Part shown: positions 1-16,967 of the stretch, in pieces
Numbering within the stretch: position 1 is the first letter of the stretch
Layout of the letters: every line of letters starts with the position of its first letter
Virus record (IMG/VR): IMGVR_UViG_3300031566_000011
Coordinates: 1-17,624 of that record
DNA from: a virus
Lineage: Duplodnaviria > Heunggongvirae > Uroviricota > Caudoviricetes
Direction: 5' to 3' (one strand)
Length of the DNA: 17,624 bases
The notes under the pieces: model-generated
Databases searched by the model: none
Told to the model about the DNA's origin: nothing
The model's input: the letters and a program-made list of their open reading frames with translations, nothing else
Translations under genes and position numbers: made by a program

Positions 1-544
1 CACTGCAATCAAAACGACCACCAACTTTTTGAGGACAACCTTTTAAACTTGTTAGCTGGTTATTGCTGCAAGAAAACCAATCACCAACTTTTTGCGGACA
101 ACCTTTTAAACTTGTTAGCTGGTTATTGCTGCAATAAAAATCACCACCAACTTTTTGCGGACAACCTTTTAAACTTGTTAGCTGGTTATTGCTGCAATAA
201 AAACCACCACCAAATTTTTGCGGACAACCTTTTAAACTTGTTAGCTGGTTATTGCTGCAATAAAAACCACCACCAAATTTTTGCGGACAACCTTTTAAAC
301 TTGTTAGCTGGTTATTATCACAATCAAAATCACCACCAACTTTTTGCGGACAACCTTCTAAACTTGTTAATTGGTTATTGCTGCAAGAAAACCAACCACC
401 AACTTTTTGCGGACAACCTTCTAAACTTATTAGCTGGTTATTGCTGCAATCAATATCTCCTTTATAGTTTTTCCCTTCAATATCCTCGTTTCCTTTAATA
501 ACCGTCCACCAATACCCAAATGATCCTTTTTTATATTTATTCAT
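1..544 (-). CDS. Leucine-rich repeat protein, paralog 1 (3' end runs off the window; absent from the ORF track)
   Basis: ATG at 544 reads MNKYKKGSFGYWWTVIKGNEDIEGKNYKGDIDCSNNQL..., has 7 repeats of NNQLTSL(E/K)GCPQKVGG and stays open to base 1. It ends in RFDCS, the same junction that precedes the C-terminal domain in paralog 2. Purine-rich RBS upstream. Confidence 0.9.
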   Translation of the reverse strand, partial: MNKYKKGSFGYWWTVIKGNEDIEGKNYKGDIDCSNNQLISLEGCPQKVGGWFSCSNNQLTSLEGCPQKVGGDFDCDNNQLTSLKGCPQKFGGGFYCSNNQLTSLKGCPQKFGGGFYCSNNQLTSLKGCPQKVGGDFYCSNNQLTSLKGCPQKVGDWFSCSNNQLTSLKGCPQKVGGRFDCS

Positions 545-573
545 TATTACCCCCTTCCCTTTTTTTTATATTT

Positions 574-1716
574 TTATTTCTTAAAAAACTCTTTAAATTT
601 ATTACTTCCATACTGGTTTTGTGTTAAATCAATAATTTCTTTTATTGAATACTTTCGTTTTTCCACATTATTTGTTTTTATAAAATCTCTACATCCAAAC
701 CCACAAGCCCCAGTTATTGTTCTATACATTTTTATCATTTCTTCAAAAGATATGATTGTATCAATATTCATGTCTTTATATTCAGTTGTATCACTATTTG
801 ATATTTTATATATCCAGTCCTCTTTTGCTTCTTTTAATGTTTTTCCGTGAGAATATATACCATCTTTTTTTATGCAAACACCATCTTCAAAATAATATAT
901 ATCTATATTTTTTTGTTTTCTTTGTTTTAAGACATTCTTCTTAACTCCGTCAAAAAAACTCCACACTTCATCTTTATACAAATAAATATCACCAAATAAG
1001 CTATCTGTAAACTTAAAATCGTCTGGGATAATTGTTATAGAATTATCACTGCAATCAAAACGACCACCAACTTTTTGCGGACAACCTTTTAAACTTGTTA
1101 GCTGGTTATTGCTGCAAGAAAACCAACCACCAACTTTTTGCGGACAACCTTTTAAACTTGTTAATTGGTTATTATCACAATCAAAACTACCACCAACTTT
1201 TTGCGGACAACCTTTTAAACTTGTTAGCTGGTTATTGCTGCAAGAAAACCAACCACCAACTTCTTGAGGACAACCTTCTAAACTTGTTAATTGGTTATTA
1301 TCGCAATAAAAACTACCACCAACTTTTTGCGGACAACCTTCTAAACTTGTTAGCTGGTTATTGATGCACCAAAACCAACCATCAACTTTTTGCGGACAAC
1401 CTTCTAAACTTATTAGCTGGTTATTGCTACAATAAAAATCACCACCAACTTCTTGAGGACAACCTTCTAAACTTATTAGCTGGTTATTTCTGCAATAAAA
1501 ACAACCACCAACTTTTTGCGGACAACCTTTTAAACTTGTTAGCTGGTTATTGCTGCAAGAAAACCACCCCCCAACTTGTTGCGGACAACCTTCTAAACTT
1601 GTTAGCTGGTTATTGTTGCAATCAATATCTCCTTTATAGTTTTTCCCTTCAATATCCTCGTTTCCTTTAATAATCGTCCACCAATACCCAAATGATCCTT
1701 TTTTATATTTATTCAT
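574..1716 (-). CDS. Leucine-rich repeat protein, paralog 2 (9 x 21-aa LRR plus C-terminal domain with HGKT...YRTITGAC...QYG)
   Basis: 380-aa ORF; repeat xFxCxNNQLTSLxGCPQxVGG fits the LxxLxLxxNxL LRR pattern. Non-repetitive C-terminal region of about 150 aa. Confidence 0.9.
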   Translation of the reverse strand: MNKYKKGSFGYWWTIIKGNEDIEGKNYKGDIDCNNNQLTSLEGCPQQVGGWFSCSNNQLTSLKGCPQKVGGCFYCRNNQLISLEGCPQEVGGDFYCSNNQLISLEGCPQKVDGWFWCINNQLTSLEGCPQKVGGSFYCDNNQLTSLEGCPQEVGGWFSCSNNQLTSLKGCPQKVGGSFDCDNNQLTSLKGCPQKVGGWFSCSNNQLTSLKGCPQKVGGRFDCSDNSITIIPDDFKFTDSLFGDIYLYKDEVWSFFDGVKKNVLKQRKQKNIDIYYFEDGVCIKKDGIYSHGKTLKEAKEDWIYKISNSDTTEYKDMNIDTIISFEEMIKMYRTITGACGFGCRDFIKTNNVEKRKYSIKEIIDLTQNQYGSNKFKEFFKK

Positions 1717-1745
1717 TATTACCCATTTCCCTTTTTTTTATATTT

Positions 1746-2508
1746 TTATTTCTTAAAAAACTCTTTAAATTTATTACTTCCATAGAAAACGACCACCAAC
1801 TTTTTGCGGACAACCTTTTAAACTTGTTAGCTGGTTATTGCTGCAATAAAAACTACCACCAACTTTTTGAGGACAACCTGCTAAACTTATTAATTGGTTA
1901 TTATCGCAAGAAAACCAACCACCAACTTTTTGCGGACAACCTTCTAAACTTGTTAATTGGTTATTATCGCATTCAAAACGACCACCAACTTTTTGCGGAC
2001 AACCTTTTAAACTTGTTAGCTGGTTATTGTTGCAAGAAAAACGACCACCAACTTTTTGAGGACAACCTTTTAAACTTGTTAGCTGGTTATTGCTGCAAGA
2101 AAAACTACCACCAACTTTTTGCGGACAACCTTTTAAACTTGTTAATTGGTTATTATCGCACCAAAACCAACCACCAACTTGTTGAGGACAACCTTCTAAA
2201 CTTGTTAATTGGTTATTATCGCATTCAAAACGACCACCAACTTCTTGAGGACAACCTTCTAAACTTATTAGCTGGTTATTGCTACAATAAAAACCACCAC
2301 CAACTTTTTGCGGACAACCTTCTAAACTTGTTAGCTGGTTATTGATGCACCAAAACCAACCACCAACTTCTTGCGGACAACCTTTTAAACTTGTTAGCTG
2401 GTTATTATCGCAATTAATATCTCCTTTATAGTTTTTCCCTTCAATATCCTCGTTTCCTTTAATAATCGTCCACCAATACCCAAATGATCCTTTTTTATAT
2501 TTATTCAT
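1746..2508 (-). pseudogene. LRR paralog 3, C-terminal domain deleted and frameshifted (ORF 1774-2508, 10 repeats)
   Basis: Same N-terminus as paralogs 1 and 2. Bases 1746-1784 equal 574-612 (last codons and stop of paralog 2) but are joined directly to a repeat; about 440 bp are missing and the frame ends at FLWK*. It may still be expressed as a truncated protein. Confidence 0.8.
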
Positions 2509-2628
2509 TATTAACCCCTTCCCTTTTTTTTTAATTCATTAAATATATTATTACATATTTTGTTTAAAAATGCAATCTTTTTTTTATTTTTTTAGAACTA
2601 TTTTATGTTTTAGTGAAATTTGCATCTT

Positions 2629-2938
2629 CTAATTCAATTTAACATCTAATTCTTCTTGTGTTATTTTTATTCTTTTCCATCCCTTTTTTATTGATTTATT
2701 CAAAAAATCTCTTATAGTATATTCACTGATTTTTGATTTTGCATTGTTTCTAATTTTATTTGCTTTTTTAAAATATTGTTTCTTTAATTCTTTATTTAAT
2801 TTATATAATTAAATATAAAATTTCCTTTTTAATCCAGAATATTAAATCTCTAAATAAATTTTATAATCTCATCATTTTTACAGAAAATAAAAATAATAAA
2901 ATCAATAGTAAAATATAAATCATTTCTTGCTTTTCCAT
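2629..2938 (-). pseudogene. Small hydrophobic ORF (2861-2938, MEKQEMIYILLLILLFLFSVKMMRL) possibly continuing as a disrupted gene to 2629
   Basis: Good RBS (AAAAGGGG) before the ATG at 2938. After the TAA the frame continues 19 codons, and a start-less 58-codon basic frame ends at 2629. Confidence 0.3.
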
Positions 2939-2957
2939 TTCTTATCCCCTTTTTTTT

Positions 2958-3134
2958 TTAATTTGTTATAGCCCTCTTTAAAAATATTAAAGCCATGTTT
3001 CTTTTACTATCAAGACTATGTTTTTTATATTTTTTGTTCAAAAATGATATGCAATTTATTAAATCAATTTTAAGTCTTTTGTCATTACTAAATTTTTCTT
3101 TAAGAAAATTAAATATTTCTGATTGATTTTCCAT
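2958..3134 (-). CDS. Hypothetical protein, 58 aa (MENQSEIFNFLKEKFSND...)
   Basis: Manually translated ORF with strong RBS GAGGCGGTGA, co-oriented with its neighbours. Confidence 0.7.
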   Translation of the reverse strand: MENQSEIFNFLKEKFSNDKRLKIDLINCISFLNKKYKKHSLDSKRNMALIFLKRAITN

Positions 3135-3163
3135 TTTTACTCACCGCCTCTTTGTAGTATTGA

Positions 3164-3526
3164 TTAAATTTCTAATGATAAATCATTTATAGCTAAATTC
3201 CGTAATGTTTCCTCGTATCCAAGCCATGCTAAATTATTTGTATTTAATTCAAAAGGTATTTCTCCGCATTCCTGTCTTATATTCTCCACTATCTCCAAAA
3301 TCTCTTCTGAAAATTTATTAAAAAATTCATGAGTATCTTTAGAATAAATAAGTCCGTGAACACCGCCAGAAATACAACCATGCTTTAATGTTTGATTAAT
3401 AAAATCAAAAATATCATCAGCATTATCTACTTGATTTGGTAAATTATCAAGAATATAATATTCCAAGCTCCCAGAAAGATAATTCTTTTTTAATTCCTCT
3501 AGTTTTTTTAATGTAATTTTTTTCAT
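3164..3526 (-). CDS. Conserved-looking phage hypothetical protein, 120 aa
   Basis: ORF with RBS AGGGG. Motifs HGCISG..GLIY.KDT.EFF and NLAWLGYEE resemble a recurrent phage early protein family (from memory, unverified). Confidence 0.8.
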   Translation of the reverse strand: MKKITLKKLEELKKNYLSGSLEYYILDNLPNQVDNADDIFDFINQTLKHGCISGGVHGLIYSKDTHEFFNKFSEEILEIVENIRQECGEIPFELNTNNLAWLGYEETLRNLAINDLSLEI

Positions 3527-3607
3527 TTTTCTATTCCCCTTTTTTTTTTATTTGCACTTCTTGAATTTAAATTTTCCATTTTCCTTGCCCCTTTTTTAAC
3601 TAATCTT

Positions 3608-3640
3608 AAATATATTATAGCAAATTTTGCAAAAAAGTCT
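3608..3640 (-). promoter_or_regulatory. Leftward extended -10 promoter
   Basis: Minus strand TGCTATAAT (3614-3622) upstream of the leftward gene block; weak -35 (TAGACT). Confidence 0.55.
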
Positions 3641-3686
3641 ACTAAATAATCAAATAAATGAATAAATATTTAAAATAATAAAATAA

Positions 3687-3715
3687 TTGCTTGAATATTC
3701 TAGCCAATATATACT
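3687..3715 (+). promoter_or_regulatory. Sigma70-type promoter
   Basis: TTGCTT-17 nt-TATACT. Confidence 0.4.
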
Positions 3716-3773
3716 ACTATTTATACAAGGCACGAGAATATAATATTAAGCGTTATTTGTTATTTGTATACTA

Positions 3774-4002
3774 TGTGTCAATAATCATAAAATAATGGCT
3801 AATTTGTTGGTTTTTGTGTGTGTTTTGCGGTGCATTATCCTATTTGTAATAGTAAAATTGTGATATGAATTATAAGTATAATTATGCAAGCAAATATTTC
3901 ATTGTTTGTCAAGATAAATAAAGTATCAAAAAAAATGAATATTTTATTGACAAATACATTATTTTTTTGTAAAATATGTATAAGATAATCAAATAAAAAA
4001 GG
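3774..4002 (+). repeat. 229-bp direct repeat, copy 1 (promoter module)
   Basis: About 7 differences from 5548-5775 by manual alignment. Confidence 0.95.
3947..3975 (+). promoter_or_regulatory. Sigma70 promoter in repeat copy 1
   Basis: TTGACA-17 nt-TAAAAT upstream of the ATG at 4012. Confidence 0.75.
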
Positions 4003-4011
4003 CGGTAAAAA

Positions 4012-4125
4012 ATGTTAAAATTAAAAAATAATTATGTAACAATTCTAAAAGCAAGATTAAAAATGATATTTAAAAAAAGATATTGCAAACAGGATACAAA
4101 AGAAATCCGATGGGTTAAATTATAA
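4012..4125 (+). CDS. Small basic hypothetical protein, 37 aa (MLKLKNNYVTILKARLKMIFKKRYCKQDTKEIRWVKL)
   Basis: Sits right after a consensus promoter and RBS GGCGG, at the position equivalent to ORF 5787 behind repeat copy 2. Confidence 0.55.
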   Translation: MLKLKNNYVTILKARLKMIFKKRYCKQDTKEIRWVKL

Positions 4126-4517
4126 AATTAAAGATAGTTTTAAAAAAACTTGATAGATACATCAAAACATGCTTTATATTGCTTCTTTATAGTAGACAAG
4201 TAACTACATATCGATAATAGTATGATCGTATCAGTAGTGTTGATACTACTACATACGTATAGTGATAACATTACTACTATGATTGTATAATAACATAGAT
4301 ACATCGTTATACTAATGCAGAAGCATAGTAGTATAATTATATCTACAATAAAAAAAACATTTTCCGAATTTCAACATTTAATCGCTCTTTACATGATTAT
4401 ATGTAATACCACGATAATAAGATTGCAAGAATAATAATATATAGATAGTAATATGGAGATAATGGTATAATATTACTACTACCTATATAATACAAAATAT
4501 ATTTCAAAAAACTATTC

Positions 4518-4646
4518 CAGAGACCTATCTCAAGGGCAGAGACCTATCGCAAGGGCAGAGACCTATTGCAAGGGCAGAGACCTATCGCAAGGGCAGAGAC
4601 CTATTGCAAGGGCAGAGACCTATCGCAAGGGCAGAGACCTATTGCA
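4518..4646. repeat. 19-bp tandem repeat x 6.8 (CAGAGACCTAT(C/T)GCAAGGG)
   Basis: Units start at 4518, 4537, 4556, 4575, 4594, 4613, 4632. Non-coding and GC-rich relative to the flanks. Confidence 0.95.
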
Positions 4647-4660
4647 GAAAAATTTCAAGG

Positions 4661-4945
4661 TCAATTATTATAAATTTTCACTATATAAGATTTGTAGATT
4701 TCCTCATCTATGTAATCTTTTTTAAGTGGTAGACCAACAGCTAAAATAAAATTTTCTATAAAATCCTCTTCTACTTCGCTAGAAATCCCTTCATTAAGAA
4801 AATGAAAAAAAATATCATCCTCATCTTCTAATTCTGGGCAATATCTTTCAAAGTCACTTTTAGAAATTTCAATAGTTTTTCTTTTTAGCGATTTGTTTTT
4901 GTTGCCTCTAATCCAAACGAATAAATCAATTTTTACATTTTCCAT
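4661..4945 (-). CDS. Acidic hypothetical protein, 94 aa
   Basis: ORF with RBS GAGGTG; no recognised motif. Confidence 0.75.
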   Translation of the reverse strand: MENVKIDLFVWIRGNKNKSLKRKTIEISKSDFERYCPELEDEDDIFFHFLNEGISSEVEEDFIENFILAVGLPLKKDYIDEEIYKSYIVKIYNN

Positions 4946-4962
4946 TTTTACACCTCTTTTTT

Positions 4963-5361
4963 TTATTTTTTGTCGTCGTCTGTATCGTAGTCAAAGCATA
5001 GTTTGCATCGGTCGCATCGGTCGCAGTCTACGCAGTCTACGCAGCCGTCGCATCGGTCGCAGTCGTCGCATCGGTAGCAGCCGTCGCATCGGTCGCATCG
5101 GTCGCATCGGTCGCAGTCTACGCAGTCTACGCATCGGTCGCAGTCGTCGCATAGAACACAGTTTTTGCATCGGTCGCAGTTTTTGCATCGTTCGCAGTCG
5201 TTGCATCGGTCGCAGTCTATGCAGTCCCAACAGCCATGATTCGTAGCATTCATTTCTTCCCAGTTTTTGTGTTGATTAGCAAAATTTCGAGAAACCCCGT
5301 TGATTTTTTTATCGTCTCGTTTTGCAAACTCAGCATAGCACTCAAATATTTTTGTTTTCAT
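4963..5361 (-). CDS. Cysteine-rich CxxCxx repeat protein, 132 aa
   Basis: RBS GAGGTGG; more than 20 Cys at strict 3-residue spacing (CDRCDDCVDC...), encoded by a 9-bp repeat. Confidence 0.8.
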   Translation of the reverse strand: MKTKIFECYAEFAKRDDKKINGVSRNFANQHKNWEEMNATNHGCWDCIDCDRCNDCERCKNCDRCKNCVLCDDCDRCVDCVDCDRCDRCDRCDGCYRCDDCDRCDGCVDCVDCDRCDRCKLCFDYDTDDDKK

Positions 5362-5547
5362 TTTCCACCTCTTTTTTGTTATTATCTTATAAATATATTA
5401 GCAAATAATGCAGAAAATTACAAACAAAAAGTATTAAAAAAATAAATATTATATAATATATAATGATAATATATACCACATTTGTAGTAGTATTTATCAA
5501 ATGAAAGGAATGGCTGGAATTATGAGTTATTATATATTTTGATATAT

Positions 5548-5775
5548 TGTATCAATAATCATAAAATAATGGCTAATTTGTTGGTTTTTGTGTGTGTTTT
5601 GCGGTGCATTATCCTATTTGTAATAGTAAAATTGTGATATGAATTATAAGTATAATTATGTAAGCAAATATTTCATTGTTTGTCAAGATAAATAAAGTAT
5701 CAAAAAAGTGAATATTTTGTTGACAAATACATTATTTTTTTGTAAAATATGTTTAAGATAATTAAATAAAAAAGG
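5548..5775 (+). repeat. 229-bp direct repeat, copy 2 (promoter module)
   Basis: Matches 3774-4002. Confidence 0.95.
5720..5748 (+). promoter_or_regulatory. Sigma70 promoter in repeat copy 2
   Basis: TTGACA-17 nt-TAAAAT upstream of ORF 5787. Confidence 0.75.
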
Positions 5776-5786
5776 AGTGAGGAAAA

Positions 5787-6080
5787 ATGAAAATTTCAGG
5801 AATAGAATTAAAAAACAGATTTGGAATGATTTGTAACAACGAGGATCTAATAATATCTATTGAATATCCAGAGGATATTATTGATTTTGATGCAAATTGC
5901 AACATAGAATATGAAGATAGAATTAATGATTTATGGTGTGATTTGGAAATAAATAAAGAAATAAAAGTTATTTGTTTTTCTTCAAGGTTGCATTTTGGGT
6001 GTCCTATTTGTTTGATTCGTAGAGAAAATGGAAAAATAGTTTGGAAAGATGAAAAATTAATAAAAGATATGAGAAAATAA
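5787..6080 (+). CDS. Hypothetical protein, 97 aa
   Basis: ORF with RBS GGAGTGAGG. Confidence 0.8.
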   Translation: MKISGIELKNRFGMICNNEDLIISIEYPEDIIDFDANCNIEYEDRINDLWCDLEINKEIKVICFSSRLHFGCPICLIRRENGKIVWKDEKLIKDMRK

Positions 6081-6118
6081 TAAATATTATAAAATAAATA
6101 AAAAAAGAGGTAAGTAAA

Positions 6119-6418
6119 ATGAAAAAAATAGAGTCATTAAAAAATAAATTCGATTTTAATAATGTTCCAAATAAAGATATTTTGGAATTTGCAAGATTAA
6201 ATTATACTAAATTTTATTACCTAAAATTTAAGAATTTTATGGAAACTAATTTTGGAGATAAAATTGAGAAACAAAAATTCAAAGAAAGATGGAATTCCTC
6301 TAATTCTAAAATTTTGGATTTGCACAATGACTATTTTAAAATACGATGCACACTAGCAAAGCCTATGCCATATTTTGAATATTCACAAGATAGTTTTGGA
6401 AATGTGTGCGTAAAATAA
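6119..6418 (+). CDS. Hypothetical protein, 99 aa
   Basis: ORF with RBS GAGGT. Confidence 0.75.
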   Translation: MKKIESLKNKFDFNNVPNKDILEFARLNYTKFYYLKFKNFMETNFGDKIEKQKFKERWNSSNSKILDLHNDYFKIRCTLAKPMPYFEYSQDSFGNVCVK

Positions 6419-6436
6419 AAAAAGGAGTGAGGAAAA

Positions 6437-6733
6437 ATGGAAAAAATTATATGCACATTAGGAAACAACTCTAAAGTTATTGTTGAAACTTTTTTGACAG
6501 AGGAGGAATTTTGGCAAAAATTTCAAGATAATTTTGACGAGAAGTATCGATGTTTCATATGGGATAGAGTAGATATTGATTTTGAAATTCACGAAAATGA
6601 TTTTAAAAAATTGATGCCAAAAAATTGTGAACTTATTCAATATGGTCGTGGTGAATATGGTAATTATTTCATGCACAATTTATCGGTTGAAAAACAAAAA
6701 GAAATAGAAATTGAATGGCAAATTTCTGATTGA
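6437..6733 (+). CDS. Hypothetical protein, 98 aa
   Basis: ORF with RBS GGAGTGAGG, identical to that of ORF 5787. Confidence 0.8.
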   Translation: MEKIICTLGNNSKVIVETFLTEEEFWQKFQDNFDEKYRCFIWDRVDIDFEIHENDFKKLMPKNCELIQYGRGEYGNYFMHNLSVEKQKEIEIEWQISD

Positions 6734-6734
6734 G

Positions 6735-6846
6735 GCTTTTCATCTCCAAACTTCTGATTAGGGCTTTTCAGCTCCAAACTTCGGGTTGGGGCTTTTCAGC
6801 TCCAGCCTGCGGGTTGGGGCTTTTCAGCTCCAGCCTGTGGGTTGGG
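6735..6846. repeat. 28-bp tandem repeat x 4 (GCTTTTCAGCTCCA..CT.CGGGTTGGG)
   Basis: GCTTTTCA starts at 6735, 6763, 6791, 6819; contiguous units with no spacers. Confidence 0.9.
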
Positions 6847-6912
6847 GAAGCTACCACCCCCCCCCATACCCCTCTATCCAGTTCGTAGTATTACATATTA
6901 AGACACACACCC

Positions 6913-7066
6913 CTCCCAAAAAATTTATGACATTTCTTCAAGCATTTGTATTAAAAAAGTGAAACTCCCAAAAAATTTATGACATTTCTTCAAGCATTTG
7001 TATTAAAAAAGTGAAACTCCCAAAAAATTTATGATAATATTTAACGCATTTGTGCTAAAAAAGTGA
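6913..7066. repeat. 52-bp tandem repeat x 3 (two identical, third diverged)
   Basis: CTCCCAAAAAATTTATGA starts at 6913, 6965, 7017. Confidence 0.95.
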
Positions 7067-7110
7067 TATATTCTATGGTATTTCCATATATTCTGTGGTA
7101 TTTCCATATA
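7066..7110. repeat. 20-bp tandem repeat x 2.2 (ATATATTCT(A/G)TGGTATTTCC)
   Basis: Units at 7066 and 7086 differ by one base. Confidence 0.9.
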
Positions 7111-7206
7111 CTTTAAATAATATGACAATATATGGTATTAAATTGGATTATAAAAGAATTGTATTGATTTGTGGGTGTTTAAAATAATTTTTGGTAATTT
7201 GGTGTG

Positions 7207-7239
7207 GATAGTTTAAGTTAAGCCTAACTATCTTTTTTT
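7207..7239 (+). terminator. Putative intrinsic terminator
   Basis: GATAGTT/AACTATC 7-bp stem, 12-nt loop, followed by T7. Confidence 0.45.
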
Positions 7240-7416
7240 ATCTTCACAAATTGTCATAGCAAATTTAATATTTTTAATGTCAATAATCAGTGGCTTTTGT
7301 CCTTCACAAAAATATCGTTTCTCATCAAAAACACCATAATTTGGTAATTGTCGTTTGTAATATTTATGTTTAATTTTACCATATAAATCTATTCTTCTAA
7401 TCTTAAAATGCGATAC
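7228..7416 (-). pseudogene. nadE: Internal fragment of glutamine-dependent NAD+ synthetase (nitrilase/CN-hydrolase domain)
   Basis: Manual translation ...GKIKHKYYKRQLPNYGVFDEKRYFCEGQKPLIIDIKNIKFAMTICEDKKR*. K..LPNY.VFDEKRYF and ICED are hallmark motifs of this domain. No ATG start; TAG on both sides. Confidence 0.85.
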
Positions 7417-8203
7417 CTATGACCTTTCTTAATATATTAGTTTCTTTGTATTATATTATATTTTCTTATATTATATTACACTATATTACATTATCTTAAA
7501 TTCCCATACTTACCTTAGAAGCTGGTAAAGTAAGGAGATAGATCAGCTTTAGCCATGCCATAATATTATAGACGGGTTATGCTCTATAGATACTAATGAT
7601 GTCCTTCCGTGAATGATAATATTGTATAACTTCTATTGTATGCTTGGGATATCTTTGATATTAAATCTTTTTGAATTATGATTTAAAAAGTATATCGTTA
7701 TCGCATACTATATCATTTATATTATTAAAAATCAATAATACATTCTTTTCATAAAAAGCGTTCTATTACTTTTGTTCTTTTTGTGTTTTGTTAAAGTTTT
7801 TTTTACCTTGTCGCTGTATAATGCAAGTATGCTATTCAGTTCTCTAATTTTCGTTCCCATCAGGAGACCCGTGTTGATGGTAAAGAATGATTGCTATATT
7901 CTAAAACGCATACATCTGTGCGATAATAGAGATGTGACACATGTGTATAGCGGTTATATCCATTCGACACCATAGATGTTTTATTGGACTTTCCCTTTTT
8001 GTTCATTCTGTGAAAACTGCCTTAGATCAATCGCTAATTAAATATTTTTTATTTAATTAGAAATATCAAGATCTCGCTTTCTTCCTTGCCAGAGAACAGG
8101 CTTGGAAGGTTTGTTAGGGTTGTCAGCTGTGGGACATTGCCCTGCAAAGAAAATTTCATAGAACTATATTTCGCTATCATTATCAAATTTTTGGTAGCTA
8201 AAT

Positions 8204-8435
8204 ATATTATAGCATGCTTGTCAAGCGATTTTCTTCATTTTTCGTTAAAAAAAACATTTTTCTCGTCGTGAAGAAAAAAAACATAATTATTTTAGACCCT
8301 AAAAAGGGCGAAAAAAGGGGTTTTTTTGGTTAAAAAAAAAGTGCTCTCGTCTAGAAAACGTTAAAAAAGTGCCTTACCCCCCTTGACAAGAATCGTGCTT
8401 TTTGGCTAAAATAGTGTCTTTTTGGGTAAAAATAG
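8204..8435. repeat. 232-bp inverted repeat, left copy
   Basis: Reverse complement of 11830-12061; one mismatch over the outer ~190 bp, more diverged in the inner ~40 bp. Confidence 0.97.
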
Positions 8436-8496
8436 TGCTTCTTTTGTAGTAATAACATCATTAACATGCACATAATATTCACGCCATATATGTTTC

Positions 8497-9210
8497 TTAT
8501 TTATACCTGAACAATTTTTCCACACTTACCTTGTTACCGCCTGTTTTGCCGTTTGCAGATAAAGAAGATTTTGCTTCCTTTTCCCAAACACATTTAAAGT
8601 CGGCAGGTGCGTTGTATTCACTTACAAATACGGTGTGTCCTTGTCTGCTTATATTTCTTACCCAATTCCAAAAAAGGTTGTGGTCAAATTCATCTACCTT
8701 GTACTTTGAGGTTCCCTCGTATGGTGGGTCACAATAAACAATACTTTTTGGCGGTAATTCCAATTCATAATAAGGTTTGTTTTGAAATATAACGCCCTTC
8801 ATTTTAGGTACTTGTTTCAACACATTTTTAATTGCTTCAGTTTGGTAGTCTCTTACTGTTCCTATTTTGGTTTTTGTTTCTCCAGCAAACCCGCTAAAAT
8901 AAACACCAGAGTAAGAGCAATTAAAACCTACCCAAGCAACTTCGTGCGGTGGGTATTTCCCCTTGTTTTCTCTAATTTGTTTGTGTTCTTCACGGGTGTA
9001 CTTTTTTGGCATCCAACCGCCAACAAGTTCACGCCACATTTGTATTAAATGAGAGTGTATATCATTGGCAATCCTATTGCCTTGCACCTCGCAAATAGCG
9101 TTCATTCCCCCTGCAAATGGTTCAACATACCATTGTTCAGGCTTTCGGTCTTTTAAAATAATAGGCAAAATCTCTTTACTAAATCGTGCCTTACTACCCA
9201 TGTATTTCAT
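8497..9210 (-). CDS. DNA adenine methyltransferase (Dam/D12-class N6-MTase)
   Basis: N-terminal YMGSK, motif I YVEPFAGG, motif IV YCDPPY. Confidence 0.92.
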   Translation of the reverse strand: MKYMGSKARFSKEILPIILKDRKPEQWYVEPFAGGMNAICEVQGNRIANDIHSHLIQMWRELVGGWMPKKYTREEHKQIRENKGKYPPHEVAWVGFNCSYSGVYFSGFAGETKTKIGTVRDYQTEAIKNVLKQVPKMKGVIFQNKPYYELELPPKSIVYCDPPYEGTSKYKVDEFDHNLFWNWVRNISRQGHTVFVSEYNAPADFKCVWEKEAKSSLSANGKTGGNKVSVEKLFRYK

Positions 9211-9448
9211 TTAAAATTTCCTCATATATTTTTAATGTTTTTTTTAATTTTTCAATTTTTTGTTTAATTTCTTGTTTTTCTTTGTTTATATGTTTTGATA
9301 TATTATTTTTTGTTCCTATAATAAAATCATATCCATTGCTAGAAGAATACCACCCATGACCAATACATCCATATGCTTTCTTTATATCATCTTTATTCAA
9401 AAGTTTCAATTTATTATTTTTTGTAGATAATTTATATATTTTCGTCAT
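9194..9448 (-). CDS. Hypothetical protein, 84 aa, C-terminal coiled coil
   Basis: ORF with RBS GGAGGG; overlaps the MTase start by 17 nt. Confidence 0.7.
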   Translation of the reverse strand: MTKIYKLSTKNNKLKLLNKDDIKKAYGCIGHGWYSSSNGYDFIIGTKNNISKHINKEKQEIKQKIEKLKKTLKIYEEILNEIHG

Positions 9449-9498
9449 TTTAAAACCCTCCTTTTTTTAAATATTAAATAATAATTATTAGTTAATTA

Positions 9499-9948
9499 TC
9501 AGACTAATTTTCCATCTTTCCAATTCGTTTTGCTTTCAATCTCTCCGTTTTCATAATATTTAATAGCTTCGCCATCTAGTTCTCCATTTTTACAATTATA
9601 TTTCCATTTAATCGTTCCGTTTTCATAACATTTAATAGCTTCGCCATCTAGTTCTCCATTTTTACAATTATATTCGCATGCAATCTCTCCGCTTTCATAA
9701 TATTTAATAACTTTTCCGTCTAATTTTCCATCTTTAAAATTCAAGTTTCTTCTAACCTTGCCGTTTTCATAATAGTCAATTGCTTCGCCATCTAGTTCTC
9801 CATTTTTACAATTATATTTCCATTTAATCTTTCCATTTTCACCATATCCAACAGCTTTGCCATCTAGTTCTCCATTTTTAAAATTCCTTTTCAATTTAAT
9901 TATTCCGTTTTCATAATATTTAATATGTTCGCCATTTTTCTTTTTCAT
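9499..9948 (-). CDS. MORN-variant repeat protein (YwqK antitoxin-like fold)
   Basis: 24-aa repeats YYENG.I....N.KNGELDGEA; 72-bp DNA periodicity. Confidence 0.88.
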   Translation of the reverse strand: MKKKNGEHIKYYENGIIKLKRNFKNGELDGKAVGYGENGKIKWKYNCKNGELDGEAIDYYENGKVRRNLNFKDGKLDGKVIKYYESGEIACEYNCKNGELDGEAIKCYENGTIKWKYNCKNGELDGEAIKYYENGEIESKTNWKDGKLV

Positions 9949-10134
9949 AATTTTAATCCTTTAATTTTTAAATAACAATAGACGATTGCTAAAGCTAAAA
10001 TTGCCGATATTATTAAGATTTCTTTTAAATCGTATATGTAAAATAACAAAGTGCTAATCTACATGTAAGTTCATAACATCTATATTTGTTTTGTAAGTGC
10101 AAATTGTGATCCCAAAGATTTTTTATAATCCCAA

Positions 10135-11697
10135 TTATAAATTAAATAATTCTGTTTGAATATCCAACTCTTTTGTTGGAAAATTCTTTATTTGATTACT
10201 TGTTATTGATTTATACCCACCAGAAAAATCTTTACCTGTAATTTTTATATATTTTAAAAATTCATTTGAATTCAAAATATTTTTTATTATTTCCCAATTT
10301 GATTTCTTTTTTTTCTTTATAATAAAAATACCTGAATAAACAAAAGTTTTATCATCTAAATCATAAAATTTAATAGAATCTTTCATCAAAGTGCTAATTA
10401 CAATTTTTTCATTATGAATTGTTTGCAATCCTTGACTTCTTCCAAATTCATACCACAAGGAACATTTATCAATATCTCTTTTCAATAATTCTTTTTTATT
10501 TTCCAATAAATAATCATAACACTTTGGATATTTAACTTCTAATTCTTGTTCTTGAATTACCTTAAATTTTTCGTTATCTTTTTTATATGGAAATATTATA
10601 TATTTAACTTCTTCATCATTTCCCTTATATGTTGACCCTTTTATAACTTTATACAAAATATTTTTTTCAACCCAATGTTTATTAAATAAAACTAATGAAT
10701 CTTTTTCTTTCTCAATTTCCCCAATAAAAATATTATCCCTTAAAGTTGCAATCCCATATTGAACATCAAAAAAATCTGATACCTTTTTATATCCCACAGA
10801 AAATATTTTTTTCAAAAAATTCATTTCTTCCGTATTTGAAAAAGACCAATCATTATCATTCAATACAACATAATTAATTTTATTAACTTCAATTATTTCT
10901 TTATCAACCAATTCTTTATATATAAATTCATTTTTAAAATCATAAAAATTTATTATAGTTATTGCTGTATATGTAGAAACATTATTGAAAATTTTATTAG
11001 ACTTAAAATTCGTTAAACTTCTAACTGCTTTTGCCTCTTTTAAATATTTTCTGAAACTTTTATAAGATGAATTATGCAAATAACTATTAGGTGTGATATA
11101 CCCTAAAATACCTTTTTTATTTAATAATTTAAAACCTAATTCAAAAAACGAAACATAAATATCAATTGTTCCTTGCGAAAATAAAAATTCTTTTTTTAAT
11201 ATTTTTCTAGTTTCCTCATCCAAATTATGTATTCTAATATAAGGTGGATTCCCAACCACAAAATCAAAAAAACCTAAATATTCTTTATATTTATAAAGTG
11301 TATTTTCGTTAGATATTTCCCAATCAATTTTTATTTTTTGATTTAATTTTTTTTCAACTACATCGTTTAAATTATTTATACAATTTTTAAATTCTTTTGT
11401 ATCAATTTCTATTCCATAAATATTATTTTCTAAAATATTTTTTATTTCATGAACTTTTTTATTTTGTTTCAAACTTTTATCTATAATTCTTTGAACAATA
11501 ATTTTTAAAAATGCTCCATCACCACAAGCAGGATCTATTATTTTTTTACTTAAAATATTGTCATTTTGGGATACGAACCCAACAGAATCAAGTATTTCTT
11601 CTACTATCCAATCTGGAGTAAATACCTGTCCTAATATTTTAATTTTCTTCATTCTTACATTCCCTTTATCTCTAAATTTATATCGTAAATTTTCCAT
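10135..11697 (-). CDS. Gamma-class N6-adenine DNA methyltransferase (TaqI/Eco57I-type architecture); start may be the ATG at 11652
   Basis: GQVFTP, IIDPACGDGAFL, VVGNPPY, GYITPNSYL, and a C-terminal specificity region with WYEFGRSQGL. Confidence 0.93.
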   Translation of the reverse strand: MENLRYKFRDKGNVRMKKIKILGQVFTPDWIVEEILDSVGFVSQNDNILSKKIIDPACGDGAFLKIIVQRIIDKSLKQNKKVHEIKNILENNIYGIEIDTKEFKNCINNLNDVVEKKLNQKIKIDWEISNENTLYKYKEYLGFFDFVVGNPPYIRIHNLDEETRKILKKEFLFSQGTIDIYVSFFELGFKLLNKKGILGYITPNSYLHNSSYKSFRKYLKEAKAVRSLTNFKSNKIFNNVSTYTAITIINFYDFKNEFIYKELVDKEIIEVNKINYVVLNDNDWSFSNTEEMNFLKKIFSVGYKKVSDFFDVQYGIATLRDNIFIGEIEKEKDSLVLFNKHWVEKNILYKVIKGSTYKGNDEEVKYIIFPYKKDNEKFKVIQEQELEVKYPKCYDYLLENKKELLKRDIDKCSLWYEFGRSQGLQTIHNEKIVISTLMKDSIKFYDLDDKTFVYSGIFIIKKKKKSNWEIIKNILNSNEFLKYIKITGKDFSGGYKSITSNQIKNFPTKELDIQTELFNL

Positions 11698-11738
11698 GTT
11701 TACTCATTTTTGTTTTTTATCTACTTATTTATATCAAA

Positions 11739-11766
11739 ATTATATTAAAATTAAAAATAAAGTCAA
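11739..11766 (-). promoter_or_regulatory. Sigma70 promoter of the methyltransferase operon
   Basis: Minus strand TTGACT-16 nt-TATAAT. Confidence 0.65.
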
Positions 11767-11829
11767 GCATTTTTACAAAAAAAATAAAAAAATATTAATA
11801 AAATTCATTGATTTTTTCACAAAAACAGC

Positions 11830-12061
11830 CTGTTTTTACCTAAAAAAGCACTATTTTAGCTAAAAAACACGATTCTTGTCAAGGGGGGTAAGGCACTTTT
11901 TTAACGTTTTCTAGACGAGAGCACTTTTTTTTTAACCCAAAAAACCCCTTTTTTCGCCCTTTTTAGGGTCTAAAATAATTATGTTTTTTTTCTTCACGAC
12001 GAGAAAAATGTTTTTTTTAACGAAAAATGAAGAAAATCGCTTGACAAGCATGCTATAATAT
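11830..12061. repeat. 232-bp inverted repeat, right copy
   Basis: Reverse complement of 8204-8435. Confidence 0.97.
12051..12059 (+). promoter_or_regulatory. Extended -10 promoter upstream of terS
   Basis: TGCTATAAT about 50 nt before the terS ATG; mirrored at 8206-8214 on the minus strand. Confidence 0.55.
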
Positions 12062-12110
12062 GTATATGGAAAGAAAATAGTATTATCTTTTGGATAATTT
12101 AGGCGATATT

Positions 12111-12743
12111 ATGGCAAACAAATGGAATAATAGTGGATATAGTTTTAAAGACAAAGTATCTGAGTTGCAAAAAAAGAAAAAGCAAATAGAAGAAAAGAAT
12201 GGTGATGTTTTATCAAAAGAAAGCATAGTTCATGAATTTGAAAAAGACATTAAAGATAATATAGAAAAAGATGATATTCTTTTAAGGTCAATTGAAAGAC
12301 GTGAGATATTAAATAAATACTATAATTTAAAAACTAATATGTTTGCATTCAGTGAATTAGAAATAGAAGAATTGGGACGTAGTTTAGTTGATTGGGCTGA
12401 TATGGATGAAAAGAACTTTATAATTAAAAGTTTTTTTTCAAAAAGAATGATTCCAGATAGTATTGTTAAAGATTTTATATCAAAGAATACTTTCTTTGCA
12501 AGGTGTTACGAGATAGCTTGTGATAGATGTGAGTCTAAGTTAGTTGATGATAGTTTAATGGTTGGAAGTCGTGTTAAAGGTAATATGGCACAGTTTGTGT
12601 TAGGTAATAATTCTGTAGCACAAGCTAATAATGACGACGTTAATGAAAAATTGAAGCATTCAAAAGAATTAATTGAATTTAGAGAAAAGTTGGGTAATGC
12701 TAGTATTGGTGATTTAGAAAAATTCCTATTACCAAAACCTTAA
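12111..12743 (+). CDS. terS: Probable terminase small subunit
   Basis: Position before terL. C-terminal F..CYE.A....E..L and N..MAQFVL.N pattern resembles terS proteins. ATG 12111 preferred over TTG 12090. Confidence 0.65.
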   Translation: MANKWNNSGYSFKDKVSELQKKKKQIEEKNGDVLSKESIVHEFEKDIKDNIEKDDILLRSIERREILNKYYNLKTNMFAFSELEIEELGRSLVDWADMDEKNFIIKSFFSKRMIPDSIVKDFISKNTFFARCYEIACDRCESKLVDDSLMVGSRVKGNMAQFVLGNNSVAQANNDDVNEKLKHSKELIEFREKLGNASIGDLEKFLLPKP

Positions 12744-12831
12744 TAAAAACCGATCAACAAAGAGATGATGGCGTGTAAAACTTGTTTTATACATTGCATA
12801 GTAGCTGACAAAGCGAATCTCTTTGTTAATT

Positions 12832-12863
12832 GGTGGAGTTTGGTCGGTCTCCACTGTTTTTTT
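12832..12863 (+). terminator. Intrinsic terminator-like hairpin between terS and terL
   Basis: GGTGGAG/CTCCACT stem (12832-12838 with 12849-12855), 10-nt loop, then GTTTTTTT. Confidence 0.6.
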
Positions 12864-12896
12864 AAAAATAAGATATATAGAGGTTTATTTTTACAC

Positions 12897-14339
12897 ATGC
12901 AACATAATGATCGATTTGTAGATATTTTAAAGCAAGAGGTTAAGCTACGGCTTATTAGGAAGTATGTAGATGCCTGTGATGTTTTGAAATGGGGGAAATT
13001 ATTGTTCCCTTATAAGTTTAAAGGTGAATTTTGTCAAGAATTACATCAGTATTTAATAGATACTATGAATGAAGAGACGACTGTTGTTTTGGCTCCACGT
13101 GGTTCTGGAAAAACTATTATTAGTTGTTTTTTGATACCAATATATTTGGCATTAAATCATCCTGATAAATACATACATTTTTTAAGTATACAGTCAACAT
13201 ACAAGAAAGCTGCAGGAATAAATACAAATATTAGAGATGAAATAGCAAATAACGAACTATTAAAAGAATATTATGGTGATTTAGTTTCTAAGCATTGGAC
13301 TAAGGATCAATTTGAGCTTACAAATGGAGTTGTTTTTACATCTATTGGTTGCGAAGGTAGTCTGAGAGGGTTGAATTATAAAAGTTATAGACCAGATTAT
13401 GTAATTATTGATGATTTATACGCTGAGAATGATTATAGATCAAGAGAAGCTAGAGAAAGAAAAGAAATTTGGTATTTTTCATCGTTATTTCCTGCGATTT
13501 CTTCGTTTGGAGATACAGAGCCATGTATTAAATTACAAGGAACAGCAGTTGCAAGTGATGATTTATATCACAAATTGAAAGAAAATACTAGGTATATTTT
13601 CCGTAAATTTCAATCAATTATTGACTGGGAAGAAAAACAAGTTCTTTGGGCAGACATGAAAACTTTTGAAGAGTTAATGGTATTAAAAGAATCAATGCCT
13701 GCTGTGTTGTTTTATAGAGAATATCAAAATGATTTATTTAGCAACGAAGAAAGTATTATTAATTTAGATTGGATAAAATATTACGATGAAATAAATCTAC
13801 AAGAGGAAGACATTGTTTGCAAAATGTTAGGTATTGATCCTTCTGTTGGTGAAAGTAAAAAAAGTGATTATACTGGTTTTGCAATTGTATACAGGACTAT
13901 TTTTAAAGATAATCCTAGTCGTAGTAATTATTACGTTTTAAGAATTGAACAACACAGAATGTCTATGCAAGACAGAATAGATTATATTGTGGATTTACAT
14001 AAAGAATATAATTTTGATTTTATTTTTGTAGAAGATGTAGCAGCGTTTAGAGACTTTGCTGTTAGATTAATGAATACTGGTAATTTGCCTGTAATACCTA
14101 CTTCTGAGCTAGGAAAAGGAAATATAGGTAAAAGGGTTACTCTGGAAAATAAATCTATATATTTTCAGCGTGGATGGGTTTTTTTTAATGAAACCATAAT
14201 ACGAAACCCTAGTGATAGAGCTTTACTTGAAGAACAAATAACAATAAACGATCCTCCACATGATGACATGAGGGATGCTTTATTTTTAACGTTAACTGAT
14301 ATGTTCGATAGCAATGTTAGCTTTGAAGTTGTTTGTTAA
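12897..14339 (+). CDS. terL: Terminase large subunit
   Basis: Walker A APRGSGKT, Walker B YVIIDD, nuclease motifs LGIDPS and HDDMRDA. ATG 12897 with upstream AGAGGT preferred over 12765. Confidence 0.95.
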   Translation: MQHNDRFVDILKQEVKLRLIRKYVDACDVLKWGKLLFPYKFKGEFCQELHQYLIDTMNEETTVVLAPRGSGKTIISCFLIPIYLALNHPDKYIHFLSIQSTYKKAAGINTNIRDEIANNELLKEYYGDLVSKHWTKDQFELTNGVVFTSIGCEGSLRGLNYKSYRPDYVIIDDLYAENDYRSREARERKEIWYFSSLFPAISSFGDTEPCIKLQGTAVASDDLYHKLKENTRYIFRKFQSIIDWEEKQVLWADMKTFEELMVLKESMPAVLFYREYQNDLFSNEESIINLDWIKYYDEINLQEEDIVCKMLGIDPSVGESKKSDYTGFAIVYRTIFKDNPSRSNYYVLRIEQHRMSMQDRIDYIVDLHKEYNFDFIFVEDVAAFRDFAVRLMNTGNLPVIPTSELGKGNIGKRVTLENKSIYFQRGWVFFNETIIRNPSDRALLEEQITINDPPHDDMRDALFLTLTDMFDSNVSFEVVC

Positions 14340-14374
14340 CATTAAATAATTTTATAATTGAGGAACTTTTATAT

Positions 14375-15775: not shown

Positions 15776-15799
15776 GAAATAGCTTATTAAGGAGTTTTT

Positions 15800-16936: not shown

Positions 16937-16967
16937 AAGCTAAAAAGCTAATCACAAGGAGATAATA

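Follow-up and report, generated by a model that had tools for sequence, protein, structure and literature searches.

Tandem phage leucine-rich-repeat genes that look like fast-evolving target binders joined to a conserved viral domain

Introduction

A tailed-phage (Caudoviricetes) sequence of 17,624 nucleotides (hereafter the window; positions 1 to 17,624 of IMG/VR record IMGVR_UViG_3300031566_000011) opens with three adjacent genes whose repeated units are almost the same. What such genes do for the phage, and by which process their repeats came to differ, is the question raised by this locus. A first-pass annotation, made from the DNA letters alone, interpreted the genes as a recombination-shuffled repertoire of binders. 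Judged from sequence, genes A, B, and C look like fast-evolving target binders, because they differ almost only at three residues per repeat, because their repeats are reshuffled between otherwise identical genomes, and because the proteins are associated with a conserved viral end domain.

Results

Three Tandem Genes Share One Scaffold

The window is the start of an 81.6-kb contig (about 84% complete) whose first bases lie within gene A and whose last bases lie within a C-terminal domain. Identity between the large terminase of this phage and those of cultured phages does not exceed 28%, and a megablast search with window positions 1-8000 against deposited phages yielded no match. Tandem Repeats Finder located 63-bp (21-aa) repeats at positions 3-450 (7.1 copies, 90% matches), 1049-1622 (9.1 copies), and 1771-2414 (10.2 copies), with one array in each of three minus-strand ORFs. 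The following features were distinguished (LRR, leucine-rich repeat):

2-544, minus strand: gene A, N-terminal 181 aa, comprising N-cap, cap unit, six internal LRR units of 21 aa, and the first part of the terminal unit
545-573, minus strand: B-A intergenic spacer with a purine-rich ribosome-binding site
574-1716, minus strand: gene B, the complete member (380 aa), with N-cap (aa 1-27), ten LRRs (aa 28 to about 237), and C-terminal domain (aa 226-380)
577-1041, minus strand: C-terminal domain of gene B (155 aa), a beta-hairpin sheet followed by five helices
1027-1635, minus strand: LRR solenoid of gene B, unit GGxFxCxNNQLTSLxGCPQKV, hypervariable at positions 3, 5, and 7
1717-1773, minus strand: C-B intergenic spacer, part of a duplicated tail-plus-junction segment
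1746-1784, minus strand: deletion scar, in which the last approximately 39 nt of a B-type C-terminal domain and its stop are joined out of frame to a repeat unit
1774-2508, minus strand: gene C, an LRR-only derivative (244 aa) with N-cap, ten LRR units, and the end ...GGRFLWK*

The N-cap is 99% identical among the three genes, whose opening 93 nt differ at no more than one site, and the regions upstream of A and B show two differences in 60 nt. The B-A junction sequence is also present upstream of B and past the scar in C. No signal peptide was visible in the N-cap when its sequence was read directly. A scan for promoters and terminators was uninformative, as it returned fewer sites than shuffled sequence. 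A diverged fourth paralog is located at positions 50683-51450 of the same contig.

Tandem Repeats Finder, the ORFs, and the N-cap comparison thus bore out the near-identical tandem paralogs with 63-bp repeats described in the first-pass annotation. All eight modules that it listed (WFSCS and seven others) were found, and the triplets WSS, GYS, DYS, and WWI reappear in different genes at different places. Its account of three paralogs with 7, 9, and 10 repeats required amendment for two of them. The contig start interrupts gene A, and the tail of its C-terminal domain was found at the other end of the contig (81475-81624). Gene C is a frame-shifted deletion product, which lacks a C-terminal domain because the deletion is out of frame. 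The same scar closes LRR-only genes with 4, 6, and 13 units in relatives.

Repeat Arrays Differ Between Otherwise Identical Genomes

Close relatives were gathered from metagenome contigs with a degenerate N-cap DNA pattern; a long version of this pattern gave no match in viral contigs. L097, an independent metagenome contig from another sample, matches the window without a difference over about 1.7 kb, including all 735 nt of gene C and its flanks. It departs from the window exactly at the first repeat of B, where it has 11 units with other modules and another allele of the C-terminal domain. At the position of gene C, ten units in this contig correspond to four in L113; at that of gene A, at least eight units correspond to five in L110 and 11 in L103. 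Overall, between 4 and 13 modules, differently ordered, occupy the same genomic positions in close relatives, although these are short-read metagenome assemblies, which can mis-order near-identical repeats. Where relatives have different arrays, their flanks show complete or 95-99% identity; relatives also swap entire cassettes together with the allele of the C-terminal domain. The variation was seen between genomes, and all copies are complete ORFs with their own starts, save gene A, which is truncated by the contig start.

Module order and number are therefore not fixed across relatives, in agreement with the shuffled repertoire proposed earlier. Recombination among modules is only a part of the process, however, since point substitutions and whole-cassette swaps act as well. 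In sibling metagenomes, identical flanks give way sharply to diverged arrays, which points to an arms race now under way.

Many related contigs break inside the LRR genes. Such breaks, together with exact repeats of up to 102 bp within the array (the longest measure 102 and 98 bp) and the contig ends inside gene A and inside the C-terminal domain, are what would be expected if short-read assembly had multiplied one or two genes in a repeat region. That explanation is very improbable. A second assembly contains an identical gene C, every gene comes with a start and a spacer of its own and a distinct series of units, and 22 of the 23 internal units are distinct at the DNA level. The two contig ends are moreover bridged by a complete gene in L110, which is 99.4% identical to contig positions 76398-81087 and continues through that gene into sequence resembling positions 545-579. 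Relatives also share the tandem arrangement.

Variation Is Concentrated at Three Codons per Repeat

Among the 23 internal units, entropy was 2.32, 2.06, and 1.71 bits at positions 3, 5, and 7, respectively, and at most 1.19 bits elsewhere. When 86 units were pooled with those of close relatives, the corresponding values were 2.26, 2.22, and 2.03 bits, against 0-1.1 bits at other positions. The three positions together accounted for about 61% of total entropy, while F4, C6, N9, L11, and L14 were invariant in the 86 units (C6 in 86/86). The proposed preference for three positions was thereby upheld, but the word "confined" was too strong, because positions 15 (E/K) and 20 (K/E/Q) each carried about 1.1 bits and positions 12 and 19 about 0.4-0.5 bits. 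Residues at positions 3, 5, and 7 came from restricted sets in which W, Y, D, S, R, and G were prominent, and formed 33 triplets.

Selection was assessed in homologous blocks (21 unit pairs from short-read assemblies). The three codons showed 16 nonsynonymous and no synonymous changes, and the 18 scaffold codons 16 and 11, respectively. In a separate comparison, pN was 0.47 at the three codons, versus a scaffold pN of 0.036 and pS of 0.164. Because the three codons are saturated and contain few synonymous sites, a Nei-Gojobori pN/pS within them (0.90) was discarded and scaffold synonymous change was taken as the yardstick. Nonsynonymous change at the three codons was about 2.2-fold above that yardstick, a marginal difference (Fisher p = 0.04), and exceeded scaffold nonsynonymous change with p = 3e-6.

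These data bear on whether the genes are simply decaying duplicated DNA, in which neutral repeat instability and relaxed constraint on the surface generate differences that are not selected. The marginal test against synonymous change, the freely varying repeat number, and the origin of gene C as a frame-shifted deletion product would all fit such decay. We nevertheless consider it decidedly unlikely, given that nonsynonymous change at the three codons outstrips synonymous change in the scaffold with no synonymous change at those codons, and that the residue alphabets are restricted and rich in aromatic and charged residues. Open reading frames are moreover kept in all copies, the scar-bearing LRR-only type persists with 4-13 units in several assemblies, and the family has thousands of relatives.

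Sharp localization of variation in a few codons also resembles the targets of diversity-generating retroelements, which raises the idea that a dedicated diversifier, either such an element or a site-specific shufflon recombinase, writes the variation. This is hardly credible for the present array. Variable codons differ at all three codon positions rather than by adenine-specific change, a template/variable repeat pair is absent, and the repeats are direct, not inverted. No reverse transcriptase (RVT_1) was found in the 81.6-kb contig under conditions in which control genomes gave matches, and the ORFs scanned in the vicinity of the array included no recombinase. The earlier suggestion that diversity arises without a dedicated enzyme accordingly held for this contig; because it is about 84% complete, a reverse transcriptase or partner gene could lie in the missing part.

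Variable Residues Map to the Predicted Concave Face

The array consists of tandem LxxLxLxxNxL units predicted to form a solenoid, the hallmarks of the LRR superfamily, and gene B matched Pfam LRR_4 (E = 1.6e-11); a partial match to the NCBIfam SspH2 model had E = 6e-16. Phmmer matches in the LRR part were led by SspH2 (1e-14) and included internalin-J (1e-13). In an AlphaFold model of gene B (pLDDT 89.9), each unit contains one strand region, with strands at unit positions 4-5, and the Foldseek list for this model was filled by LRR structures, with IpaH3, YopM, and SspH2 at the top.

In LRR proteins, the alternating x residues of the LxxLxLxxN strand lie on the concave face. The variable residues of the phage array occupy the positions on either side of F4 and C6, the invariant core residues of this strand, and alignment with SspH2 also sets these variable residues at LRR positions 3, 5, and 7. 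Modeled strand, SspH2 register, and the general LRR rule therefore agree with the binding-face location predicted in the first-pass annotation; positions 3, 5, and 7 would lie on the concave face, their exposure being taken from the strand register.

The Repeats Are Joined to a Conserved Viral Domain

The LRR arrays had been interpreted as a repertoire of binders. They are not free-standing but proved to be the variable half of a two-part protein, of which the constant half is a conserved viral domain that had been missed. This domain, present in gene B, in gene A (as the tail at the contig end), and in the fourth paralog, belongs to a family of approximately 130-150 aa with the pattern D...HG.T..A...YK...YR.ITGAC..G...F...FF. 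Near-invariant residues are, in gene B numbering, D256, H290-G291, K304, Y331-R332, and T335-G336-A337-C338; across 163 instances, C and K were conserved in 100%, H-G in 99%, and D in 93%. The near-invariant Asp, His, Lys, and Cys suggest a possible active or ligand-binding site.

The family comprises 945 representative clusters at 50% identity, mostly viral, and in viral contigs the domain occurs behind many kinds of repeat arrays. Its nearest ESM Atlas clusters are 70-92% viral and all hypothetical. Searches with the domain against Pfam (alone and over 41 members), NCBIfam, and PADLOC gave no match or none that was informative, and BFVD returned only unnamed family members. In structural comparisons of the domain model, Foldseek found no fold match in the PDB (best E 0.1, rmsd about 15 Å), and VIA-align against 48,161 chains reached at best a Z of 5.1 over 39 residues, representing a common beta-beta-beta-alpha piece. 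A literature search, mostly outside subscription journals, found no description of this family. Since the domain is without a recognizable fold relative, calling it an "effector" is a guess. No conserved partner gene emerged: of two large ORFs that lie downstream of family members, one encodes an SF1 helicase-nuclease and the other an intein-bearing NrdD, with no relation between them.

Genomic context was used to weigh where in the infection cycle the proteins might act. If they were internal or decoration proteins of the virion, or were co-injected with the DNA, their LRRs would bind host molecules on or after entry. Consistent with this, the phage encodes a prohead protease, and the arrays in L007-L010 bear a different, conserved N-terminal leader. 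However, transcription of the LRR genes points away from the module for packaging and head genes, and in cultured phages the gene for the C-terminal domain lies within a recombination and replication module, adjoining ERF, exonuclease, and helicase genes. Cultured phages with this gene include Riemerella phages CRP5 and CRP6 and Tetrasphaera phage TJE1. A virion location is accordingly judged unlikely.

Discussion

Proposed Role and Mode of Diversification

The reading that we favor, and regard as probably correct, is that the genes encode cytoplasmic proteins in which a binder is combined with an effector, and that unequal recombination, the exchange of cassettes, and selected point changes have diversified them. 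In the variable part, the N-cap is followed by a solenoid built from bacterial-type LRRs of 21 aa that carry a cysteine ladder; residues 3, 5, and 7 of each unit, on the predicted concave strand, may form a changeable recognition surface. The LRRs would guide the C-terminal domain to a target that varies, the likeliest being a protein of the host or of a rival element that is encountered early in infection. The anatomy, the placement of the variation, the differences between near-identical genomes, and the lack of a reverse transcriptase in the contig are observations; the concave-face location, the cytoplasmic early role, the binding, and the function of the C-terminal domain are inferred.

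Diversity could then arise without a dedicated diversifier by three routes. Unequal homologous recombination among the 63-bp repeats would alter module number and order. Whole cassettes may be exchanged between paralogs or co-infecting relatives, with putative homology arms provided by the N-cap, which is invariant, and by the conserved tail and junction. Finally, point substitutions would be preferentially kept in the three codons for surface residues. Copies reduced to LRRs, gene C among them, would be stable products of one deletion and may be plain blockers.

A more far-reaching idea, possible but doubtful, is that phages possess in the C-terminal domain a new kind of enzyme or adaptor, whose site comprises Asp, His, Lys, and Cys, with the Cys at a helix N-terminus, and aim it at changing host targets by swapping arrays (several LRR classes and other solenoids). 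The proteins would then parallel, on the phage side, the effectors IpaH and SspH, in which LRRs are joined to a catalytic domain, and the tandem paralogs would form a heritable, recombining specificity repertoire against host defenses.

If the proteins are binders, phages possess a compact, natural, recombining scaffold with specificity in three residues per 21-aa module, joined to a widespread, uncharacterized viral domain. Which phage recognition target changes so fast would then become a testable question. The family would also offer a designable repeat scaffold, and it marks sites at which viral metagenome assemblies systematically break.

Comparison With Known LRR Systems

The best sequence and fold matches are the LRR domains of NEL-family type III effectors (SspH1, SspH2, IpaH, SlrP) and YopM, which likewise have short bacterial-type LRRs with an NQLTSL...P motif. 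NEL-family effectors also combine an LRR recognition domain with a constant C-terminal domain and form multigene families. In contrast to them, the phage units are 21 residues long and place a Cys at core position 6, and the phage C-terminal domain is not a NEL ligase, as profile and single-sequence searches of the PDB matched the LRR only. The phage proteins are furthermore virus-encoded, without a secretion signal, and occur as tandem paralogs with near-identical scaffolds.

Somatic assembly from flanking cassettes, involving cytidine deaminases, generates the lamprey variable lymphocyte receptors (VLRs), whose LRRNT and LRRCT caps contain disulfide bonds. The parallel with VLRs drawn in the first-pass annotation applies to the hypervariable residues of the concave strand, and module number is variable in both. 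It does not extend to somatic or programmed assembly, of which the phage gave no sign; the sequence match was insignificant (E 0.2-0.3), and no AID/APOBEC-like deaminase was found among the ORFs scanned, which cover part of the contig.

The repeats fit the "Bacterial" (LPX) LRR class, with its 20-22-residue unit LxxLxLxxNxLxxLPxLPxx; in the phage, P18 is conserved and L17 is replaced by C or A. Internalin-J from Listeria (PDB 3bz5; profile E = 1e-30) and the IRREKO class resemble the array in their 21-residue LxxLxCxxNxL unit with a cysteine ladder. According to PMC2946307, IRREKO repeats have a nested 10/11 periodicity and a second half LDLxxNxx. The second half of the phage unit is instead the proline-containing xGCPxxVGG of the "Bacterial" class, not DLxxNxx, and the phage proteins show neither nested 10/11 periodicity nor a signal peptide or cell-wall anchor.

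Like the phage locus, plant resistance-gene LRR clusters such as Cf-4/Cf-9 and RPP8 (see also PMC6771003) contain tandem paralogs, alter their repeat number by unequal crossing-over, exchange sequence between genes, and show diversifying selection at the x residues of xxLxLxx, which face the solvent. The phage array differs from them in residing in a viral genome of about 82-97 kb, in its near-invariant scaffold, and in varying between otherwise identical genomes.

Kinship of the C-terminal domain with PcfJ-LRR proteins (PF14284) of phages and mobile elements was considered and rejected, as profile comparison aligned LRR to LRR only. PF14284 was not found in the contig. In PcfJ-LRR proteins the PcfJ domain is N-terminal, whereas the phage genes carry an unrelated C-terminal domain. 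The two groups nonetheless share the repeat GGxFxCxxNQLTSLxGxPxxV, with the same variable positions.

Organization of the LRR gene array

The contig (IMG/VR, 81,624 bp, of which the window is the first 17.6 kb) was classed as linear and about 84% complete, with a G+C content in the window of about 25-35%. Its source is an uncultured tailed phage. The large terminase was at most 28% identical to those of deposited phages, among which megablast with positions 1-8000 found no relatives. Tandem Repeats Finder detected 63-bp arrays at 3-450 (7.1 copies), 1049-1622 (9.1 copies) and 1771-2414 (10.2 copies), located in three consecutive minus-strand ORFs.

Main features of the contig
2..544, minus: LRR gene A, ORF open at contig start
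574..1716, minus: LRR gene B, 380 aa
1774..2508, minus: LRR gene C, 244 aa
8.5-11.7 kb: DNA methyltransferases
From 12.7 kb, plus: large terminase, portal, prohead protease
50683-51450: fourth paralog, diverged, with four LRRs and C-terminal domain; adjoins intein-bearing nrdD

The same 27-aa N-cap opened all three genes, with at most one differing site among them over the first 93 nt; the repeat units behind it were 21 aa long and had the pattern GGxFxCxNNQLTSLxGCPQKV. These results bore out the first-pass annotation, which had described three tandem paralogs with near-identical N-caps and 63-bp repeats. All modules named there were present, and four triplets at unit positions 3, 5 and 7 (WSS, GYS, DYS and WWI) occurred in different genes at different places.

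Beyond its last LRR, gene B encoded a 155-aa C-terminal domain. In gene C, the last 'GGRF' was joined directly to the final ~39 nt of a B-type domain, and a frame shift of one base at this point gave the ending ...FLWK and a stop. At the contig start, gene A broke off exactly at the terminal LRR unit, the one followed in gene B by the C-terminal domain. The opposite contig end (81475-81624, same strand) encoded the last 50 residues of such a domain, 98% identical to B. A metagenome contig (L110), 99.4% identical to contig 76398-81087, continued through a complete C-terminal domain, LRRs and N-cap into sequence resembling the region upstream of gene A. The two contig ends were therefore joined through gene A, a bridging that is new.

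Once joined, the gene order was C, B, A and, immediately downstream of A's C-terminal domain, a 1227-aa SF1 helicase (DUF4011, AAA_11, AAA_12) with a C-terminal MTES_1575 restriction-endonuclease-like domain (L094:9417-13100, minus strand, equivalent to contig 77416-81099). Directly downstream of the fourth paralog, the gene for NrdD (anaerobic ribonucleotide reductase) was split by intein/LAGLIDADG sequences (L095:2-3661, minus strand, equivalent to contig 47001-50660).

LRR class and location of the variable residues

The LRR part matched Pfam LRR_4. In a confident AlphaFold model of gene B (pLDDT 89.9), unit positions 20-21 and 4-5 formed short strands, and top-ranked Foldseek matches were IpaH3, YopM, SspH2 and SDS22. 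By sequence, the best solved relatives were SspH2 (1e-14) and internalin-J (1e-13; 1e-30 with the family profile). In the alignment register of SspH2, the F, C and second N of the phage unit corresponded to LRR positions 4, 6 and 9, so that the variable residues fell at positions 3, 5 and 7. LRR residues at these positions are classically exposed to solvent on the concave strand, and the variable residues would, by this register, lie on the concave face. The phage unit shared its proline-containing second half with the 'Bacterial' LRR class and its cysteine ladder at position 6 with internalin-J and the IRREKO class; the nested second half of IRREKO, as described in PMC2946307, was absent.

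Over 23 internal units, entropy peaked at positions 3 (2.32 bits), 5 (2.06 bits) and 7 (1.71 bits); it was zero at eleven other positions and at most 1.19 bits at the rest. The earlier claim of confined variation was slightly too strong, since positions 15 (E/K) and 20 (K/E/Q) alternated between two or three residues. Pooling with relatives (86 units) yielded 33 triplets, each position drawing on few residues (W/G/R/S/D at position 3, Y/S/D/W/E at 5, S/D/R/I at 7).

Diversity among relatives

A degenerate N-cap pattern retrieved 21 metagenome loci, of which seven, from sibling samples, belonged to the same close clade. Contig L097 matched the window base for base over about 1.7 kb, from the upstream region through the whole of gene C (735 nt) and the spacer to B's N-cap, and differed from B's first repeat onwards, with 11 units, other modules and another C-terminal domain allele. 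Such a base-perfect flank beside a diverged array in an independent sample is new; it ruled out a one-off mis-assembly and revealed a sharp boundary of variation. That the array is an assembly artefact was considered very unlikely. All relatives were short-read assemblies, and the array here contains exact repeats of up to 102 bp, so that individual module orders are provisional.

Module order and number were not fixed among relatives (L097, L103, L110, L113). The gene C position held 10 units here and 4 in L113; the gene A position held at least 8 here, 5 in L110 and 11 in L103. LRR-only genes with the same scar end had 4, 6, 10 and 13 units, and L114 carried an extra family member after the ortholog of the fourth paralog. 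In L096, a segment matching window 3553-2331 was inverted relative to one matching 3560-4646, a rearrangement beside the array. Three IMG/VR contigs of 44-86 kb (L007, L009, L010) each carried eight or more tandem paralogs with the same 21-aa repeat type (3-11 units per gene). Their conserved N-terminal leader (MKYLLESSKF...) was a different one, and their short C-terminal tail (...NQEDYSIWRRDGTLDEFRF...) was also conserved.

Origin of the diversity

Multi-unit blocks common to different genes differed mainly by single changes at the codons for positions 3, 5 and 7. In homologous blocks, these three codons showed 16 nonsynonymous and 0 synonymous changes, against 16 and 11 in the 18 scaffold codons. 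Nonsynonymous change per site at the three codons exceeded both scaffold rates, by 5.6-fold for nonsynonymous (p=3e-6) and 2.2-fold for synonymous change (p=0.04); all-pairs figures were concordant (0.47 versus 0.036 and 0.164, respectively). Neutral decay of the array was regarded as improbable. A synonymous pair, CAA-TTA / CAG-CTA, went with Asp or Ser at position 7, which shows that descent and recombination, too, have spread the modules.

No reverse transcriptase was found in the contig (about 84% complete), and codon changes at variable positions were not adenine-specific. The array was therefore rejected as a DGR target, and a dedicated diversifier of any kind was hardly credible. Together with the relatives' arrays, the substitution pattern and the synonymous linkage, this absence pointed to three ordinary processes that would act jointly: unequal recombination between 63-bp repeats, cassette exchange in which the invariant cap and tail serve as homology arms, and point substitution under selection at the three codons. 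Repeat exchange without a dedicated enzyme, as first proposed, was retained as one component of a broader mechanism.

The constant C-terminal domain and possible function

The C-terminal domain had no match in Pfam, NCBIfam or PADLOC, and comparison with PDB structures gave no fold relative either (best E 0.1 by Foldseek; best Z 5.1, over 39 residues, by VIA-align). Among 1.84 billion representatives searched, 945 clusters matched at E<=0.001, and every match listed carried the domain C-terminally. The nearest ESM Atlas clusters were 70-92% viral, and BFVD matches were exclusively unnamed members of the same family. Across 163 instances, a Cys (100%), a Lys (100%), His-Gly (99%), an Asp (93%) and a YRxITGAC motif (91-100%) were conserved. 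This pattern, with the conserved Cys at a helix N-terminus in the predicted model, would be that of an active or ligand-binding site.

At 79 viral loci (L015-L091), the domain was preceded by many kinds of array: besides the 21-aa Cys LRR, there were two further LRR-like types with 20-aa units, and beta-helix-like repeats of 8 aa. In about twenty cases the contig ended inside the upstream repeats; viral metagenome assemblies systematically break in genes with this domain. Thousands of proteins also combined the 21-aa Cys LRR type with PcfJ, a domain placed N-terminally to the repeats. PcfJ was not found in this contig, and by profile comparison, in which only the LRRs aligned, the two constant domains are unrelated. 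A literature search found no paper describing this LRR and C-terminal domain family; linking LRR arrays to this large and undescribed family of viral C-terminal domains is new.

The most likely reading, of moderate confidence, is a two-part recognition-plus-effector protein family with a fast-evolving specificity surface. In the few cultured phages with the domain (Tetrasphaera phage TJE1, Riemerella phages CRP5 and CRP6), its gene lay among ERF, exonuclease and helicase genes, consistent with an early, intracellular role, and no signal peptide was seen in the N-cap. Packaging of the proteins in the virion was judged unlikely. From context and tempo only, we infer an anti-defence or host-takeover role for the recognition-plus-effector family. 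Its evolutionary mode resembles that of plant resistance-gene LRR clusters and its architecture that of IpaH/SspH effectors; membership in the NEL family or the lamprey VLR system was rejected.

Other features of the window

A gene for a 120-aa DUF7222 protein (3164-3526, minus; Pfam E=1e-15) shared the strand of gene C and lay about 650 bp upstream of it. A non-coding, iteron-like array at 4518-4646 comprised 6.8 head-to-tail copies of a 19-bp unit, CAGAGACCTATCGCAAGGG, with 94% matches. A 132-aa ORF (4963-5361, minus), coded by GC-rich 9/18/27-bp tandem repeats (5005-5217), contained a long series of Cys-x-x-Cys-type repeats (CDRC/CVDC/CDGC); it had no match in a Pfam search, and its product may bind metal. 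Further tandem arrays occurred at 6730-6847 (28 bp x 4.2) and 6913-7066 (52 bp x 3). A 149-aa MORN_2 repeat protein (9499-9948, minus; Pfam E=1e-20) was coded by 72-bp tandem repeats, and its homologs (about 73% identity) directly adjoined LRR-only genes in the related contigs L098 and L103.
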